This document shows positions 3,548 to 60,800 of a DNA stretch of 64,000 bases, one piece after another. The notes beneath the pieces are model-generated. The model was not told where the DNA came from. It worked only from the letters and a program-made list of their open reading frames with translations, and did not search any database. Position numbers and translations under genes: made by a program. The first letter of the stretch is position 1. Every line of letters begins with the position of its first letter. The stretch comes from a virus (Duplodnaviria > Heunggongvirae > Uroviricota > Caudoviricetes), in the IMG/VR virus record IMGVR_UViG_2834277561_000001, positions 58,688-122,687 of that record; one strand, written 5' to 3'.

Positions 3548-3618
3548 CACATCCGCCGCGGCTTGAACACGGAACTAACAGTTTTGGAGACTGTCGCTTT
3601 TCATTAAGCTACGGATGC
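3548..3618 (-). tRNA. trnW: tRNA-Trp(CCA)
   Basis: Acceptor stem GCATCCG/CGGATGT, anticodon arm ACAGT-CTCCAAA-ACTGT, T-loop GTTCAAG. Confidence 0.88.
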
Positions 3619-9879: not shown

Positions 9880-9952
9880 TGGCGGGAGTAGGATTTGAAC
9901 CCACGACTTCTGAATATGAATCAGACGAGCTACCGGACTGCTCTATCCCGCA
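9880..9952 (-). tRNA. trnM: tRNA-Met(CAU), initiator-like acceptor stem
   Basis: T1/C72 mismatch, fMet-like D arm GAGCAGTCCGGTAGCTC, anticodon arm TCTGA-TTCATAT-TCAGA, T-loop GTTCAAATC. Confidence 0.88.
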
Positions 9953-11615: not shown

Positions 11616-12602
11616 CTACATCGACATTCTTAATTTTCTACGATATTCACGGTCTAATCGGCGTTTTTCCTTCAATTGACACTCCGGGCATCGACATGTT
11701 TTGGTGTCTTTGATATCTACTTCAACCCATTCACCACAATCAATACACTGAATGAATTTCGTTTTCTTTAGTGGGAGATTGCATTCCAGATTGTGAACTA
11801 CATAATGTCCATAACAGAACCAGAATAATTGTTTTGAACGTTTATTCTTTTCATATAGATACTGGATTAACATATTCGTAATTGTTTCATCCGAATATCC
11901 CAACTGAGAAAATTCATCTCGAATCTGACAAGCCACGTATCTCAAATTATCAATATATTCGTCCTTCATATTGATTTTATATCTGTATTCTTTATTAAGC
12001 TTGTCATATAATTCCGCTACTTCCTTTGAACAAATCACGTTTACATTACTCATCATTTTATGGTAATCAAGTTTTCCTAATTTGAGTCCACGGGTATTGA
12101 TTGCTTTATTTGGAATATGATCGTACAATTTATTAACGAAACTCATATTTCTTTTGGAAACCTGAGACTTGCGTTCATCATCAGAAGCTTTTTTATCTTT
12201 TGCATATTCAAAGAATGCCGGAAGTTTATCATTTGTAAATTCTTTAATTTGTGCCGCAATATCACTCGGGAACTCGGGTTTATACAACGTTTTGGCATAA
12301 TCAATAACGAAGTTATTTTGACAACACAATCTCTTTACACAAGTAATTGCATGTTCCTTTTCTTCATCCGTTCCATTAATAAAAACTTCACTATTCCAAA
12401 TTTTTGAAATATTATTACTGTAAATTCCAATATTTCCACCTGTAAATGCTGCATTCAGACCTGCGTAAATATTTTTATTATTCAATTTCGTAGGTTCCGC
12501 TTTTCGCATATTGTAATATAACGGAACAATCCCATTCATATTACGTTCTGCAATCCGGACAAAATCTCGATCCGCGACAACAAGCGATTTATCTCCATCA
12601 AC
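11616..12602 (-). CDS. YonO-type single-subunit RNA polymerase, exon 2
   Basis: Begins VDGDKSLVV, completing the DxDGD motif; C-terminal CIDC..CPEC zinc ribbon. Confidence 0.85.
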   Translation of the reverse strand, partial: VDGDKSLVVADRDFVRIAERNMNGIVPLYYNMRKAEPTKLNNKNIYAGLNAAFTGGNIGIYSNNISKIWNSEVFINGTDEEKEHAITCVKRLCCQNNFVIDYAKTLYKPEFPSDIAAQIKEFTNDKLPAFFEYAKDKKASDDERKSQVSKRNMSFVNKLYDHIPNKAINTRGLKLGKLDYHKMMSNVNVICSKEVAELYDKLNKEYRYKINMKDEYIDNLRYVACQIRDEFSQLGYSDETITNMLIQYLYEKNKRSKQLFWFCYGHYVVHNLECNLPLKKTKFIQCIDCGEWVEVDIKDTKTCRCPECQLKEKRRLDREYRRKLRMSM

Positions 12603-13593
12603 CAACCTCTAAATAAGAAGTTAGACTATATCATAGCCATATTATTTCTAACTTAGGCTCTCGGCACTTCCTTAATTGGATTTTCACCAATAAAGTACTC
12701 TACTCAGTTACTCCCATTCTTCCTGAACGGAAGAGTGGTATCTTTTCGATAGTCGTTTGATTTTTATGTAATAAGAATTATCTTTTTATAAAGCTATAAT
12801 GTTTCTTATATAAAGTTTTATTCCTAATTGATTTATTAATTTGTGATCTCACGGCTTCTGCGTCATGAGTTTTCGCAACTCCAATATCTATTAAATACTG
12901 ACAACATGGAACTATATAATCAAAAGATTTTTTAAATATTCCATCAAAATATAAGTCGATAGGTGTAGATCGTCCATTATTTATACCTGGTCTACTTTGT
13001 TTTTCTTTTGCTAATTCTTTGTCTTTACTATATTTTTCAGATAAAGTTTTATTTTTATAATTAGGATTTTTATGTCCTGTATAATCTGGACGATGACATT
13101 TACTATATTCAATGTTTTCTTGTCTTGTTACCCATTCCAGATTATCAGAATTAGGATTGGCTCTATTGTAATCAATATGATTTATTTCAGAATAATTATT
13201 AGGATTTGGAACGAAGGCAATTGCAACTAAAATATGTACAAAAACGCTTCTCCACCCTTTATCTGGAATTTTTATGGTACACATTGTGTATCCATCGGCA
13301 TTATAATAATGATTTCGTTCAACGCCGTCCCATATTACTCTTCCTAAATTCGATACTGTTATTTTAGTGCCTTTATATTCAATTTCTTTAAATAATTCTT
13401 TCAAAATTATCACTCCTTAAAATCAAGTGACAATTCTTATTACATACTTAACACAGGATTCTTTCGTTCCCTGTTAGCATATTCCCTAACCGCCATTTCC
13501 TGCGATTCCTAATTCGTGAAATATACACCCTACATTTGTAGGTTCACCGAGTTTTATTTTCTTACGTTTCCGTAAGATTCGACATTAATGGTC
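12603..13593 (-). mobile_element. Group I self-splicing intron (991 nt) carrying a homing endonuclease
   Basis: P1: exon UUCGAU pairs with intron GUCGAA with a U-G pair at the splice site; P4 CAGG/CCUG (AACAGGGAA...AAUCCUGUG); R-like AAACGACUAUC; S-like GAUAUAGUC; terminal omega-G at 12603; splicing restores QFD-VDGD in frame. Confidence 0.92.
12778..13413 (-). CDS. Intron-encoded HNH homing endonuclease
   Basis: VHILVAIAFVPNP...INHIDYNRANPNSDNLEWVTRQEN is an HNH_3-type motif. Confidence 0.9.
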   Translation of the reverse strand: MIILKELFKEIEYKGTKITVSNLGRVIWDGVERNHYYNADGYTMCTIKIPDKGWRSVFVHILVAIAFVPNPNNYSEINHIDYNRANPNSDNLEWVTRQENIEYSKCHRPDYTGHKNPNYKNKTLSEKYSKDKELAKEKQSRPGINNGRSTPIDLYFDGIFKKSFDYIVPCCQYLIDIGVAKTHDAEAVRSQINKSIRNKTLYKKHYSFIKR

Positions 13594-15429
13594 ATCGAAT
13601 TGGAGAATTTTGCTAATCAAATCATGAGTACTGGTATAAATACCGTCAGTTGTGAACCATTCTCTGATTTTTTCAGCACGCTCACCGTATGCTTTATTTG
13701 CCACATTAAAACGAATCGCATGTTCTTTATATAGATGAGGACTACGTAAACAATCTAATTTGTCGTAATACTTAAACAACCAACAGAAGACTTCTTTATC
13801 TGCAAGTAATCCAATAGGATTTTCAATATGACCAAACCAATATTCACATGCCGCATAAAAATCTGGAAGTAAAAAAGTATACTTCCCATTAATTTCCAAG
13901 CGACCACTACGATATTGTTTAAGTAAACTATCTTTGATCTCACGAAGTACATCTTTTGCATAAGTATCATTTAACAACGGTGGATATAATTTAACACACT
14001 TCTGAAAGGCGGTCATGTTATTGTTATACGGAGTGATTCCGAGAATTTCCATCATGGTATCCTGAGAAGTACAGATGTTGGTGATCTTATCTATAGACTT
14101 GGATGCGAGAAGTTTTATTTCATCATCTGTTACATTTGTAAGCGTCTGTAACATTTGATAATTTATTTTGGCATTCTTTATACGGGATTCTTCTGTATTA
14201 CATCTGCCTGCTTGACAATGATATTTCTTGAAATATTCTTTATATTCGTCCCAGGAATCATAGAACTTATACATCTTAAACTGACTTTTTGTAAAAATAA
14301 TCTGAATATCTTCGTCGATAATATTATGTTCTTTCCCATAAATATCTACGATGATAGGAGAGTAGTTGTTTATCTCAACAAATTTCCGGAAATCAAATAC
14401 TCCGAGAAGACCTTTTACCCACGGTGCACGGAACATTGTGTTTTTGTCCATCACACTTGGCAACATCATTCCAACCCCATCTGTATGAGGAATGGGAACT
14501 TGCCCCGTTTTTCTTTCTATTGAATAATCTGTTTCATCGATAAAATCAAAAACTCCGGATACATTTGTCTCAAAATCATCAATTACAATACATCGATCAA
14601 TATCAAAATCAACCCATTCATCAGTTGCCGAATTCGCTAATGCCATATATGCAAGATGTTTGTTGACATTATTCCCGCCTTTAGAATTAATCTTATCAAT
14701 TGTAAGCCCACACATAACAGTTTTTTCAACTGCATTCCATATAGATTCTTTTATAAAAACCGCTTTCTTTTTTCTGATCTGCCCAGCGGACGAAGTGAAA
14801 TATCTATACTTTTCACCTTTATAAGTAAATCCAAAAAACGAAAGATCTTTAAATACGTCAAAGTAATACACTTGCACAACCATCAGCGCATCCGTTAATT
14901 CATCCTTTTTGATACCTATCGTTCTAGTAAGAGATGATTCGAATACAGAAATAATATTCGTATCTTTAAGCTCGGTATCTCTCAGATTTCGCAATTCAAT
15001 TTTTTTAGGATAATCCTTCCCGATGGAAGAGTAATATTCAATTTTATTTTCAATATTTTCTTTATGAATTATTTTGTTATGCATAACTGCTAACAATTGA
15101 TTTTTTGATTCTTTTGCTTTTTCTCTTTTATGGGAAATTAATCGATATGTAAAATTGAACCGAAATGCTAATTCATTGAATTTTTCAATATCAGAGATGT
15201 TAAGGTTTTCATCTTGATTAAATTCATAGTTACTATCTTTTTTTAGTAACTTGATAATCCTGTCAGTCCCACCAAGTTTAATAATCTCATTTTTTATATC
15301 CTCTAATCGATTATTCAAATAGTTTCTTTCCTGGCGGTATTTACAGTTCATATCATGTAGATACTTTTCATGATTGCTATAAAAATGTCCAGTATCTACA
15401 CTGTACATATTAATTTGTGTATCTAGCAT
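13594..15429 (-). CDS. YonO-type single-subunit RNA polymerase, exon 1 (spliced product 940 aa)
   Basis: SSAGQIR, TDGVGM, FRAPWVKG, IFTKSQFK and RSPHL motifs of the RdRP-like/YonO family; ends ISKILQFD. Confidence 0.85.
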
Positions 15430-15675
15430 TTATACATCCTCCATTATGCTAGCGGTTTCACCAAACCAATTTAATAGTCTTCCAATACTCCAAGTCGCCG
15501 CACATTCCATATGTATCATTCCATTTTGGTAATTCTTGTAATAATAATCACCACGATAAATCTTGCCACCACATACTTGACAATAATGTCCAGACTCCAA
15601 ATTTTTCATGTTTATATCCGGATCAAAATTGGGGCAAGTTGACACACATGGATCATGTCTACAAATTTCACACAT
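15430..15675 (-). CDS. Small Cys/His-rich putative zinc-binding protein
   Basis: CEIC..C..CP and CQVC..HMEC motifs. Confidence 0.6.
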   Translation of the reverse strand: MCEICRHDPCVSTCPNFDPDINMKNLESGHYCQVCGGKIYRGDYYYKNYQNGMIHMECAATWSIGRLLNWFGETASIMEDV

Positions 15676-15696
15676 TTATATTCCTCCAAAATTACT

Positions 15697-16134
15697 TTAT
15701 ATATACTTATTCTCCAAAAACTCAGTCGCAAATCCATCATTTGTCGTGTAGTGGATCTCACGGATTCCTAAATCTTTGATAGCAGCCATACAGGAAGGAC
15801 ATGGGCGAGAAATCCCATATGGTTTGTCATCATTTCTTAATCTATAGATATACAGTTTTACTTTCGCGAAGTTGATATTCATATATCGAATGCTATTTAT
15901 ACAATTGATTTCCGCGTGGAGTTTCGGAAGGAGATCATCTGCACTGTCAAAATTATCGTCATCAGCACGGTATGAATTGTAATACTTCTGGATGGGATGA
16001 GTTTTGTTTGTATTACATCCTATACCGATAATAGATCCTTGATATACCGCGATACACCCGATATGGATTTTGGGATAATCCGATGCATGAGCCACATGCT
16101 TTGCTTTGCAAAAATATCTGATATCTGTTTTCAT
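15697..16134 (-). CDS. Cytidine/dCMP deaminase-fold protein
   Basis: LHAEINCI and SRPCPSCM zinc motifs. Confidence 0.85.
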   Translation of the reverse strand: MKTDIRYFCKAKHVAHASDYPKIHIGCIAVYQGSIIGIGCNTNKTHPIQKYYNSYRADDDNFDSADDLLPKLHAEINCINSIRYMNINFAKVKLYIYRLRNDDKPYGISRPCPSCMAAIKDLGIREIHYTTNDGFATEFLENKYI

Positions 16135-48958: not shown

Positions 48959-49313
48959 TACAATATAAAAAAGAGAAGCTCCTACTCCGGTGCGGGAACA
49001 CCATAATGGAGTAGGAAACCTCTCAACACACATAACATAATCTCCCACGGGAATGGGAAGAAAATGCTACATATTTATATTACATAGATTTTCTTAAAAA
49101 ATCAAGTTTTTCGTAGCATTTCTGCTAAATTTTTCCAATAATAAATAATTTATATATGTGTTTAAGTTATTCGAGTTCAAGAATAACTTATTAAATTGCA
49201 CTAATTTTTGGAAGCATAGCTAAATTGGTGTGGGCAGATGTCTCATAAACATAAGGTTGTGAGCTCGAGTCTCTCTGCTTCCATTAACTAAATATAGAAA
49301 GGAATGATTTAAT

Positions 49314-57821: not shown

Positions 57822-60800
57822 CAATTAGAGAATTATATGAATGGGCGAAGCAACAAGGTATTGAAGACTATGATATAGAAATCCAGTACAGAGATGGCGG
57901 AGGATATTATGATGGTACAGATGATGCATATTTTTACGATATAGAAACAAAACATGATAAGAAGATAATAATAATTTAGAAAGAAGATAAAATATGAGGT
58001 TATTTATTACAAAGAAAAAATTAATTAAAGAAATGGCAAAAGAATTGGCATATTTAGAGATTAACGCAGACTGGTGGTATTACACGACTAAGGTTGAAGA
58101 GAAACAGCAGATGTCAAGTCATAATCTCGATGGTGTTACAGAGCTTAGATGTATTTGCGATGCTCTTGGAATTTTAAAGGAAGTATATGATGAGGCTTAT
58201 AAAATCTATGATTTTAGAAACAGCGGAAGTGACGATTTTAAACCAAACGTTCCATTAATCAGAAAATTGCATGATGAATTTTGTGAACCAATCGCAAAGA
58301 AGCGTCCATTTATGTAAAAAGAGGAATGCAATAAGACATGAAACAGATACCCAGGCATATGCTATTGCTGCGGAAAGTACGTATATAATATAAACATGTC
58401 ACCCGAAGAGAAAGCTATTAAAGATATTGAGAAGTTAATTCTGGATTCAGATTACATAGAAATAACAGACGAAATTAAGGGTTCATTAAAACTTACGGTC
58501 AAGAAATTGAAAGAGGTAAGAGAAAATGAGTAAATCAGTATTAGTGTTGGATACACCAAAATATTGTGCTTCATGTGCTTTACGCAGCGGAATACTTCAC
58601 CCATTCTGTAGAGCGAATAGAAGAGATATTACAGATTTGAGCATTAGACCAGATTGGTGTCCATTGAAGCCATTGCCGAAATATAGATCAATGGAAAAGC
58701 CGGGAGAATACGAATATGGTGAGATGCATGGTTGGAATAGGTGTATTGATGAGATTACAGGAAAATCATGAAAAAGCTAAGTTGTGAACACATGATTTCG
58801 TATAGGAGGTGAAATATGAGTTTTACTATAACATTCCCAGTAGATATTGGAACATTTGTAATTACAGATACAAGTGTTGATTTAAATAATCCGAATAATT
58901 TAAAAGGAAACTTAGGAAGTATATCATGTTATCAATGTGTTGATGACAAAGAAGATGATTTTATTGTTATGGTATCCGGATATAAAGATTCTTGGTGTGG
59001 TGAATATTTGCTTAGTAAATTAAAAATTGCTACAGACAAACAAGTTAAAGAATACGAAATGGTAATGGGGATAAAGCAAATGGATATTGATGAGATTACA
59101 GGAGAAAGTTCTGATGATTGATTTAAGAAATACATGTATCTTGGTTAAGACAAAAGAAGAAAACGAAATGATTCTCAAAGAAGCTGAGAAGCAGGGATTT
59201 CATTGGTACTATGAAGACCATTGTAAGCCATTACAAGAACAGCATTTCCCAGACATTTTAAAATTTTGCGAAGATAAAGATATCATTCATAGAGCATTTA
59301 TTAACTCAAATTACGCTTTCCACGAAGCATCAGAACTTCTCGGAATAAAAGAAATGACAGTAAGAGAATTTGCTGAGCGGATTGCAGATGCAGGCAATTG
59401 TTACGAACGTGAATGTTCGGAATGTGTATTTAGCAAAGTGAATACTAAGTGCAGCATCAATTTGTGTAATATATACAACTGGAAAGGCAACATTGATGAA
59501 CTCTTTGAAATTGTGAAATCAGGAAAAGCGACAGTTCTTACACCGGAAGAGAAAGCAGTTGAAGATATTGAAAAATTTATTGAGAATCCAGACCGCGCAG
59601 CGTTAAATGATGAATTTGTAGATGCGTTGAAGCTGGCGATTGAAAAATTAAAAGAGGTGAAGTAGATGATAAAAATTAGCAAAATTGCCTTTGAAGCATT
59701 AAGAGATACGGATGGAAATGTTTCAAAAAAAACCAGCGGAATGGTGGAGAAGAAATAAATTGGCATGTATTTGGTGCATATTGTGTATGCTGGCAGAGAT
59801 TCCGATAGTAATATTAAGATTTGTACTTATGACAATTTGTTTTATTCCGTTAGAAGATATATCTTTTTAAGAGGTGGAGTAGATGGAGAGATTGACACTT
59901 GACGACGCTATTAAATACACCAAAGATGTAGCGAGAAAGAACAGAATAAACAAAGAGAAAAATACCATCATTATTCCTAACAGTTTTATCAGTAGTAATG
60001 ATTGTGCAGATAAATATGGACAAGTTGCTAGATGGTTGGAAAGACTAAAAGACTACGATGATTTAGAAGAAAAAGGATTACTGTTTGAACTACCGTGTAA
60101 AGTCGGAGATTTAGTTTTTATCATCAGTGGAGAAAATATTTGTGGAAGAAAAGTAAAATCAATAAAAATTTTAAGTACAGAAATCGAATTTTCAACATCC
60201 GACTTCACATTTCGAAAAGAATCTTTTGGCGAAACAGTATTTTTAACAAGAGCAGAAGCAACGAAAAAGTTGTATGAGATGGAGGAGCAAAATGGATAAT
60301 GTGTATATAGTAACAAGACAGAAAAATAATGTATTAGTTTCGATTATGCGAAATAAATTAGATGGCACGTATTCTTTTGTAAATTTAACAAAAGGACATA
60401 TATGCACTTGTAAATTTAATACCATTGAAGATGCGGTAAAAGATATGCAGATTAAAAAAGAAAATGGTGAAGTTATAAGTTATTTTAAAGTAGGTGAATA
60501 AATAGTGGATCGAAGAAATAGAAAGTATTATTTGGTGAGACTGCCATATTGTCATAATGCATGTGTGAAAAAACTGAAAGAAATTAAGACAGTAAAAATT
60601 TCAAATCCTTATGATTTTGATAAAGATAGGAAGTATGGATACGCAAACTGTTTAATTGGATTTTCTAATAATGTAGAAAATTCTATTCTTACAATTTTAA
60701 ATTCAAAATGGGAGTATGGCTATAAAGCAAAATATAATGAAATTACTAAAGAAATGATTGGACATTAAAGTTAAAACGGCAGTTTCATGGAAGGAATAAA

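Follow-up and report, generated by a model that had tools for sequence, protein, structure and literature searches.

The 64,000-nucleotide stretch of DNA analyzed here (the window; positions 58,688 to 122,687 of IMG/VR record IMGVR_UViG_2834277561_000001, from a virus of the Caudoviricetes) carries, in order along its minus strand, three open reading frames (ORFs) of 614 residues (15429..13585), 211 residues (13413..12778) and 329 residues (12605..11616). The outer two are the halves of a single gene for a YonO-type RNA polymerase, with exon 1 at 13594..15429 and exon 2 at 11616..12602. The 991 nucleotides that part them (12603..13593) are very probably a group I intron, one that would have to be removed by self-splicing before an active polymerase could be made, and that would be mobilized by the HNH endonuclease encoded in the middle reading frame. 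All features of this locus lie on the minus strand and are given in window coordinates; homologous loci in relatives are referred to by handles of the form L004.

A YonO-type RNA polymerase gene in two exons

Exon 1 comprises 612 codons and ends in ...ILQFD, a peptide that includes the first catalytic aspartate, while exon 2 comprises 328 codons and a stop, with the second and third catalytic aspartates in the VDGDK at its start. Profile searches assign the two to one family: exon 1 matches positions 2-550 of phrog_8308 (E 1.9e-183), as well as the RdRP family PF05183 (33 bits, with a cut-off of 23.8), and exon 2 matches positions 551-845 of the same PHROG family, its match abutting that of exon 1. 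A tblastn search with exon 2 finds yonO in SPbeta-like phages, the identities being 36% for SPBc2 yonO and 41.5% for phage D-1873.

At the junction itself, exon 1 closes with CAA TTC GAT at 13594, and the insert then reads GAC CAT TAA, an in-frame stop that terminates the 614-residue ORF. The 329-residue ORF includes TTG GTT GAT GGA GAT AAA, in which exon 2 proper begins with the GTT GAT GGA GAT that starts at 12602. Excision of 13593..12603 joins QFD to VDGDK in frame, for a product of 940 residues. This joined protein aligns with CLG_B2308, a protein that is not interrupted in Clostridium phage D-1873 and that reads MFDVDGDK in this region, at 47% identity and with no gap across QFD/VDGDK. 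It aligns with SPbeta YonO (QFDNDGDK) at 44% identity over 829 aligned residues, the junction again being gapless; the two proteins share the DxDGD triad, and differ in that SPbeta yonO itself is uninterrupted. The DVDGD of the window, which is present solely in the spliced product, aligns with the DNDGD of YonO.

These alignments show the host gene to be a true homologue of YonO, in which the break separates the first aspartate from the remainder of the metal-binding DxDGD triad. A preliminary description of this DNA, made from its letters, had given the same exon ends, the same split triad and the same type of polymerase, and all of these are borne out by the restored frame, the gapless alignment with YonO and D-1873, and the contiguous phrog_8308 match. 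The protein would be a single-subunit, two-barrel polymerase of the YonO type from an SPbeta-like phage, for which homology suggests DNA-dependent RNA synthesis and a role in the transcription of late genes. YonO is known to transcribe late genes, and its aspartate triad is essential (PMC5467207). Because the triad is split in the sequence of the window, and because the 3D>3N mutant of YonO is inactive (PMC5467207), active polymerase should be obtainable from spliced RNA only.

Comparative analysis of the insert

Homologue and pattern searches yielded six further loci with the layout exon 1 - HNH - exon 2 and an identical junction. Together with the window, these make seven same-site copies (window, L008, L009, L010, L012, L013 and L015), which form three lineages with mutual identities of 70-79%. 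A helix model of 96 base pairs, composed of P1-P9, P7.1/P7.2 and two extra hairpins termed Ha and Hb, was tested on the three lineages, for a total of 288 pair cells. Standard pairs are seen in 95.5% of the 288 cells, as opposed to 35-44% in slid controls, in which the 3' partner strands were shifted by 1-3 columns. Compensatory pairs number 37 of 96, versus 1-8 in the slid controls, and in lineage C the helices P6a, P7.1 and P9 are essentially different in sequence with their pairing kept. The RNA fold is supported by this covariation, and it is from the fold that we infer the splicing chemistry.

Cross-phage sequence matches accompany the covariation, and the group I intron proposed in the preliminary description now has comparative evidence of both kinds. 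By blastn, the 5' half of the insert (intron nucleotides 32-142) matches gaps that carry no annotation within split genes in Enterocloster phages (E 3e-13), the gap within the gene for DNA polymerase in Staphylococcus phage Romulus/Remus (E 2e-10) and nrdD of Enterococcus phage EFP01. The 3' half (the last 170 nucleotides) matches the DNA polymerase intron of Bacillus phage Moonbeam (E 2e-7; under tuned scoring, 8e-16) and, here too, EFP01. Megablast of the locus versus phages gives no match. The exact 5'-junction pattern has 0 matches in viral_contigs and 6 in metagenome_contigs, the latter being divided evenly between true same-site introns (3) and chance occurrences in other contexts (3).

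The intron starts with GACCAUUAA, its in-frame UAA at nucleotides 7-9 being conserved in all lineages, and finishes on a terminal G at 12603. P1 (13577..13600) is modelled as 7 base pairs between the exon sequence AUUCGAU (13600..13594) and the internal guide GUCGAAU (13583..13577), so that U13594 faces G13583 as the U.G pair of the splice site; its loop, GACCAUUAAU, contains a candidate P10 strand. The P2 hairpin, CUUACG-GAAA-CGUAAG (13561..13576), has one compensatory pair (C-G to U-A). In P3, which would form a pseudoknot with P7, the 5' strand CUCGGUG (13545..13551) pairs with the 3' strand UGCCGAG (12660..12666) over 7 base pairs; all of its cells are paired (21/21), with one compensatory and one one-sided change. 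P4 (ACAGGG/UCCUGU) encloses a minimal P5 stub, AA-CGAAAG-AA (13453..13474), and this unit does not vary among the three lineages. P4 was placed by aligning the ORF-less relatives L005 (Enterocloster) and L004 (phi3T), whose full P5 occupies the same place. For the 5' strand of P6a, UAUGUAAUAAGAAUU (13432..13446), there is a perfect 15-base-pair partner in the 3' strand AAUUCUUAUUACAUA (12765..12779), with 8 compensatory pairs, and this helix closes the loop that contains the HNH ORF.

P7 pairs GACUA (12750..12754), inside the R-like element UCAAACGACUA, with UAGUC (12624..12628) of the S-like element AUGAUAUAGUC, in agreement with the consensus GACUA / AUAUAGUC of the Rfam model RF00028, as in the alignments of the relatives. 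P7.1 (12738..12714, 10 base pairs) and P7.2 (12695..12671), which together take up 12671..12738, contribute 7 and 5 compensatory pairs, respectively. The 3' terminal region (12603..12659) is composed of P8 (12659..12635; GAAA cap, 3 compensatory pairs), J8/7, the 3' strand of P7 (12628..12624), P9 (12621..12605), which differs in sequence among the three lineages yet pairs in each, and the terminal G (12603). The 3' end reads GUUG/GUUGAUGG in all lineages. The U-G pair of P1, the R and S elements and the omega-G named in the preliminary description are thus all found (U13594/G13583, UCAAACGACUA, AUGAUAUAGUC and G12603), as is an HNH ORF between ribozyme elements, the ORF lying between P4' and P7, inside the P6a loop. 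The P10 given there (AUUAAU:GUUGAU) fares less well: the pairing is possible, but it is without comparative support, a one-sided change in lineage B breaking one pair.

The presence of P7.1/P7.2 between P7 and the 3' strand of P3 places the intron in subgroup IA. Presumably it is "IA2-like", by analogy with the introns of T4 td and Twort. The extra hairpins Ha (13542..13529) and Hb (13526..13477) fill the interval 13477..13542 between the 5' strand of P3 and J3/4-P4, and Hb is made up of an outer helix of 9 base pairs, an inner helix of 5 base pairs and the loop AGGAAAUG. Compensatory pairs occur once in Ha, at 5 of the 9 pairs of outer Hb and at all 5 of inner Hb. This module of ~70 nucleotides, which comes ahead of the UAA preceding P4, is conserved also in the introns of L004, L005, L006, L017 and L018, with many compensatory changes across eight introns in four host genes. 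We know of no such two-hairpin J3/4 insertion in described or textbook IA2 introns. A first fold, in which P4 was UAGGA/UCCUG around a "P5" of AUCGC/GCGGU and a "P5a", was dropped after the ORF-less relatives had been aligned, and the segments in question belong to Hb. Two further helices, one of GUGAA/UUCAC and one between the 3' strand of Hb and the loop of P7.2, were dropped as well, being neither conserved nor supported by compensatory change.

Several results weigh against the assignment to group I. The preliminary description had proposed a search with RF00028, and its gathering score is not reached. In the whole window at the gathering threshold (50 bits) there is no match, Rfam yielding four transfer RNAs (tRNAs) alone, and on 12300-13900, with the ORF included, there is none at E up to 10. 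The best partial match, 5'-truncated and obtained with the 3' half alone, covers 12603..12768 at 15.9 bits (E 0.046), below the gathering score; it ends exactly on the predicted terminal G (12603). P1 (in all seven copies), P4 and P7 are invariant, and hence offer no covariation either way; the independent lineages number only three; all that is left of P5 is a CGAAAG stub; and the Ha/Hb region appears to make part of the modelled fold unconventional. The failure of RF00028 says little about the absence of an intron, however, because a 640-nucleotide ORF sits inside P6a and because the model is weak on related introns, scoring 29 bits (E 4e-4) on the Moonbeam DNA polymerase element and 19.7 bits on the phi3T yonO gap, with no match on the relatives L001, L005 and L006.

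The low RF00028 score and the minimal P5, along with the TTG at 12605 that is in frame with exon 2, could also be read as signs of a dead intron, such that the polymerase gene would be a pseudogene, or its two halves would be made separately and assemble. We consider this highly improbable. Both exons are intact and are conserved in three diverged lineages, the core helices have been kept through compensatory change, and the break falls inside a five-residue metal-binding loop. As for the TTG, it consists of the last three intron bases, and the sole Shine-Dalgarno-like element abuts it, with none in lineage C. Two other kinds of intervening sequence were considered and rejected: an intein is ruled out by the stops in the host frame within the insert, and for a group II intron the sole match, with a D1-D4 model, scores 13.7 bits (E 3.3), and there is no reverse transcriptase.

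The HNH reading frame and the mobility of the intron

The ORF at 12778..13413 is of the HNH_3, I-HmuI-like type. Its likely start, in preference to the GUG at 13413, is a UUG at 13404, 8 nucleotides after AAGGAG, for a protein of ~208 residues, and its UAA stop overlaps the 3' strand of P6a. It matches PF13392 (31.3 bits, cut-off 24.8), the PHROG HNH endonucleases phrog_59 and phrog_959, and I-HmuI (PDB 1U3E; E 1.3e-5), to which the stretch EINHIDYNRANPNSDNLEWVTRQEN aligns with the motif intact. Between lineages the ratio of nonsynonymous to synonymous substitution rates (dN/dS) is 0.10-0.13, with dS saturated, and the protein is therefore kept by purifying selection. In lineage C (L009:2120-2190, L010), the first ATG/GTG/TTG of the HNH ORF comes only after the codons for 14 conserved N-terminal residues, and in-frame AAU AUA follows a good AGGAG, so that translation may begin on a non-standard codon or else the N-terminus has been lost. 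I-HmuI is a nicking enzyme, and homology suggests site-specific cleavage or nicking for the protein of the window also, with intron-less yonO as its putative target.

The following course of events may then be envisioned. In the precursor messenger RNA, the last seven bases of exon 1 would pair with the internal guide to form P1, leaving, as the fold implies, a U.G at the splice site, and the intron would fold into its P3-P9 core, the HNH ORF lying in a loop that P6a closes with its 15-base-pair helix. Free guanosine would attack after U13594, and the released end of exon 1 would then attack after the terminal G at 12603. Ligation of ...CAA UUC GAU to GUU GAU GGA GAU would rebuild the Mg-binding DVDGD triad, the predicted spliced junction being ...CAAUUCGAU-GUUGAUGGAGAU.... 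On unspliced RNA, ribosomes would halt at the UAA two codons into the intron, and the resulting 614-residue product, having one of the three catalytic aspartates, should be inactive. An early in-frame stop is common in introns of this type, and is thought to keep ribosomes off the folding core (PMC3984707). The I-HmuI-like protein, for its part, would cut or nick the intron-less yonO of co-infecting relatives near the conserved site, and repair of the cut allele would copy the intron in, i.e., homing. The codons of a catalytic motif would present a target that is hard for rivals to mutate, and homing endonucleases do favor the codons of critical residues (PMC3984707).

The distribution of the intron was surveyed, as the preliminary description had suggested, among yonO homologues, which number some 3,700, and here in the 120 protein clusters that come closest (their identity to exon 1 is 72-79%). 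Within these best 120, 104 clusters are full length (900-937 residues), 11 stop at ...QNNF[VI]ID, a second site discussed below, and 3 stop at ...QFDD[HQ], which is the DxDGD site. In a tree of exon 1, the four intron-bearing alleles require 4 gains or losses, at least 3 of which are forced by supported branches. The intron-bearing P0045 and the intron-less P0054 have end branches of 0.0018 each, and the nearest relatives of the window allele, P0001 and P0002 (79%), are intron-less. With intron-bearing alleles scattered in this manner among near-identical intron-less ones, the element is probably mobile. The exon flanks are identical across intron-bearing alleles for 16 nucleotides upstream and 11 nucleotides downstream, where intron-less alleles, such as those in L022 and L023, differ at synonymous sites; such shared flanks could reflect co-conversion in the course of homing or a constraint imposed by P1/P10, and the two may have acted together.

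This distribution bears on what the intron might do for its host. The preliminary description had proposed splicing as a gate on phage transcription. If the gate were regulated, intron folding or the availability of guanosine triphosphate would time or limit the supply of active polymerase, and hence late transcription. The triad is split, so an active enzyme does need splicing (PMC5467207), and group I splicing both uses guanosine and depends on the state of translation (PMC3984707). Against such a gate, the closest relatives (79%) and the near-identical alleles are intron-less, so the intron is dispensable for the life cycle, and no regulatory element came to light. Efficient splicing is, moreover, general among the group I introns of phages. 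A gate of this kind seems to us quite improbable, and a selfish mobile element accounts for the patchy distribution better than a built-in regulator would.

A different role, and one compatible with a self-splicing intron mobilized by its own endonuclease, would be that of a weapon in phage-phage competition, the HNH protein cutting the YonO gene of intron-less co-infecting relatives and so crippling their late transcription. The target would be an essential late-gene polymerase (PMC5467207), and an intron-encoded HNH protein in a phage RNA polymerase gene is known to act in just this way, in the case of PhiPA3 gp210 versus PhiKZ (PMC11620839). Intron-bearing and intron-less alleles also coexist in near-identical phages, and the HNH protein is under purifying selection. 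However, plain selfish homing would lead one to expect a selected ORF and a patchy distribution just as much, and we hold the competitive role only tentatively, as a rather unlikely one.

Among the metagenomic relatives, two have intron-less yonO-like genes that are broken, one by an in-frame TAA at codon 752 (L021:3695-3697) and the other by a frameshift near codon 750 (L020:5238-5250); the breaks may be genuine or may come from errors of assembly. A third intron site was ruled out for relatives of 749 and 751 residues, since a frameshift is present in one and an in-frame TAA in the other. Immediately upstream of the window's polymerase gene (15430-16134, minus strand) are an 81-residue Cys-rich ORF, with a weak DUF2175-like match, and a deoxycytidine monophosphate (dCMP)/cytidine deaminase, and both neighbors recur in the relatives L019, L022 and L023. 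The wider neighborhood in the relative L008 is SPbeta-like, with YonV_C, ParB, YonK and YonJ. The four tRNA genes that Rfam finds in the window are at 1147-1233, 3548-3618, 9880-9952 (-) and 49210-49283 (+).

A second site in yonO and related phage introns

The second site (NNFVID/YAK) lies ~100 codons past DxDGD, and the inserts there (L017:5080-6303, L018:3027-4255, L004:3268-3658 and L024:2223-3527) come after ...NNFVID, or ...ID in Bacillus phages. In L017 and L018 the insert is of ~1.2 kilobases and contains a GIY-YIG ORF; Bacillus phage phi3T has an ORF-less insert of 391 nucleotides at the homologous codon; and in Goe14 an ORF of 300 residues is found between "yonO_2" and "yonO_1". The second-site inserts share the 5' module of the window intron (E 1e-13 to 2e-8), so that one gene is host to related introns at two sites. 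The exons end in UCGAU at both sites, and movement of an intron from one to the other by reverse splicing is conceivable. We have also weighed two bolder readings, separate from each other: (a) that the intron and its HNH protein form a competition weapon that would disable the late-gene polymerase of intron-less co-infecting relatives, the carrier being immune, and (b) that the family is an undescribed structural variant of IA2, with the ~70-nucleotide two-hairpin J3/4 module and P5 nearly absent, which moved between the two UCGAU-ending sites of one gene, as would fit transposition by reverse splicing. These readings strike us as unlikely.

Among GenBank phages, the closest whole element found is the putative intron of nrdD, the anaerobic ribonucleotide reductase gene, in EFP01 (KY549443), which lies between EFP01_123 and EFP01_125 and contains the ORF EFP01_124. 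It resembles the window intron in both halves (5', E 6e-15; 3', E 1e-13) and over part of its ORF (E 1e-7), and the ORF is in the same place. The EFP01 element differs in host gene and insertion site, the identity is ~65-71%, and the record has no intron annotation. SPO1 (I-HmuI), Romulus/Remus and Moonbeam likewise feature group I introns with HNH_3-type endonucleases in genes for essential nucleic-acid enzymes of Firmicutes phages, but the host gene is in those cases a DNA polymerase, whereas that of the window is an RNA polymerase.

Group I introns with HNH genes have in fact been described in phage RNA polymerase genes, namely for PhiPA3 gp210 (PMC11620839) and 201phi2-1 gp273/274 (PMC2919709), so that introns in genes of the multisubunit type are already known. 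The polymerases in question, from jumbo phages of Pseudomonas, are multisubunit enzymes of the split beta/beta'-like type, unlike the single-chain YonO/RdRP-like enzyme of the window, and the introns are likened here by type and not by sequence. Of the same host gene family are the split yonO genes of the Bacillus phages phi3T, SPR, SPbetaL3-L7, Goe11/Goe14 and BUCT083 (GenBank), which carry a related intron; the phi3T gap matches the 5' module of the window intron at E 1.7e-8, in addition to its weak RF00028 match. These genes differ from that of the window in being interrupted at the second site, ~100 residues downstream of DxDGD, and they are deposited as two coding sequences.

In the searchable literature we found no published link between YonO and an intron, nor any paper that calls the split yonO genes of Bacillus phages introns. 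The remark in the preliminary description that no described case was known in YonO homologues accordingly holds for papers; the split itself is frequent in public data, where it goes unannotated (3/120 and 11/120 closest clusters, together with the yonO of phi3T and Goe14, deposited as two coding sequences). As a selfish element the insert is of a classic kind; it is for its presence in this host gene that we found no published report. Knowledge of how group I introns or YonO work is left unchanged by it, and the most useful by-products are the correction to annotation and the Ha/Hb module. Automatic annotation yields two "hypothetical proteins" and an HNH gene, here and in GenBank phages such as phi3T and Goe14; once the intron is recognized, a complete YonO-type polymerase is restored, and the number of genes is put right across a large family of gut phages. 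Homing introns are, as a rule, placed in the codons of catalytic residues, and this rule would now take in a third class of phage polymerase, one unrelated to the others. The near-identical intron-bearing and intron-less phages provide a natural pair for the study of intron-mediated competition.

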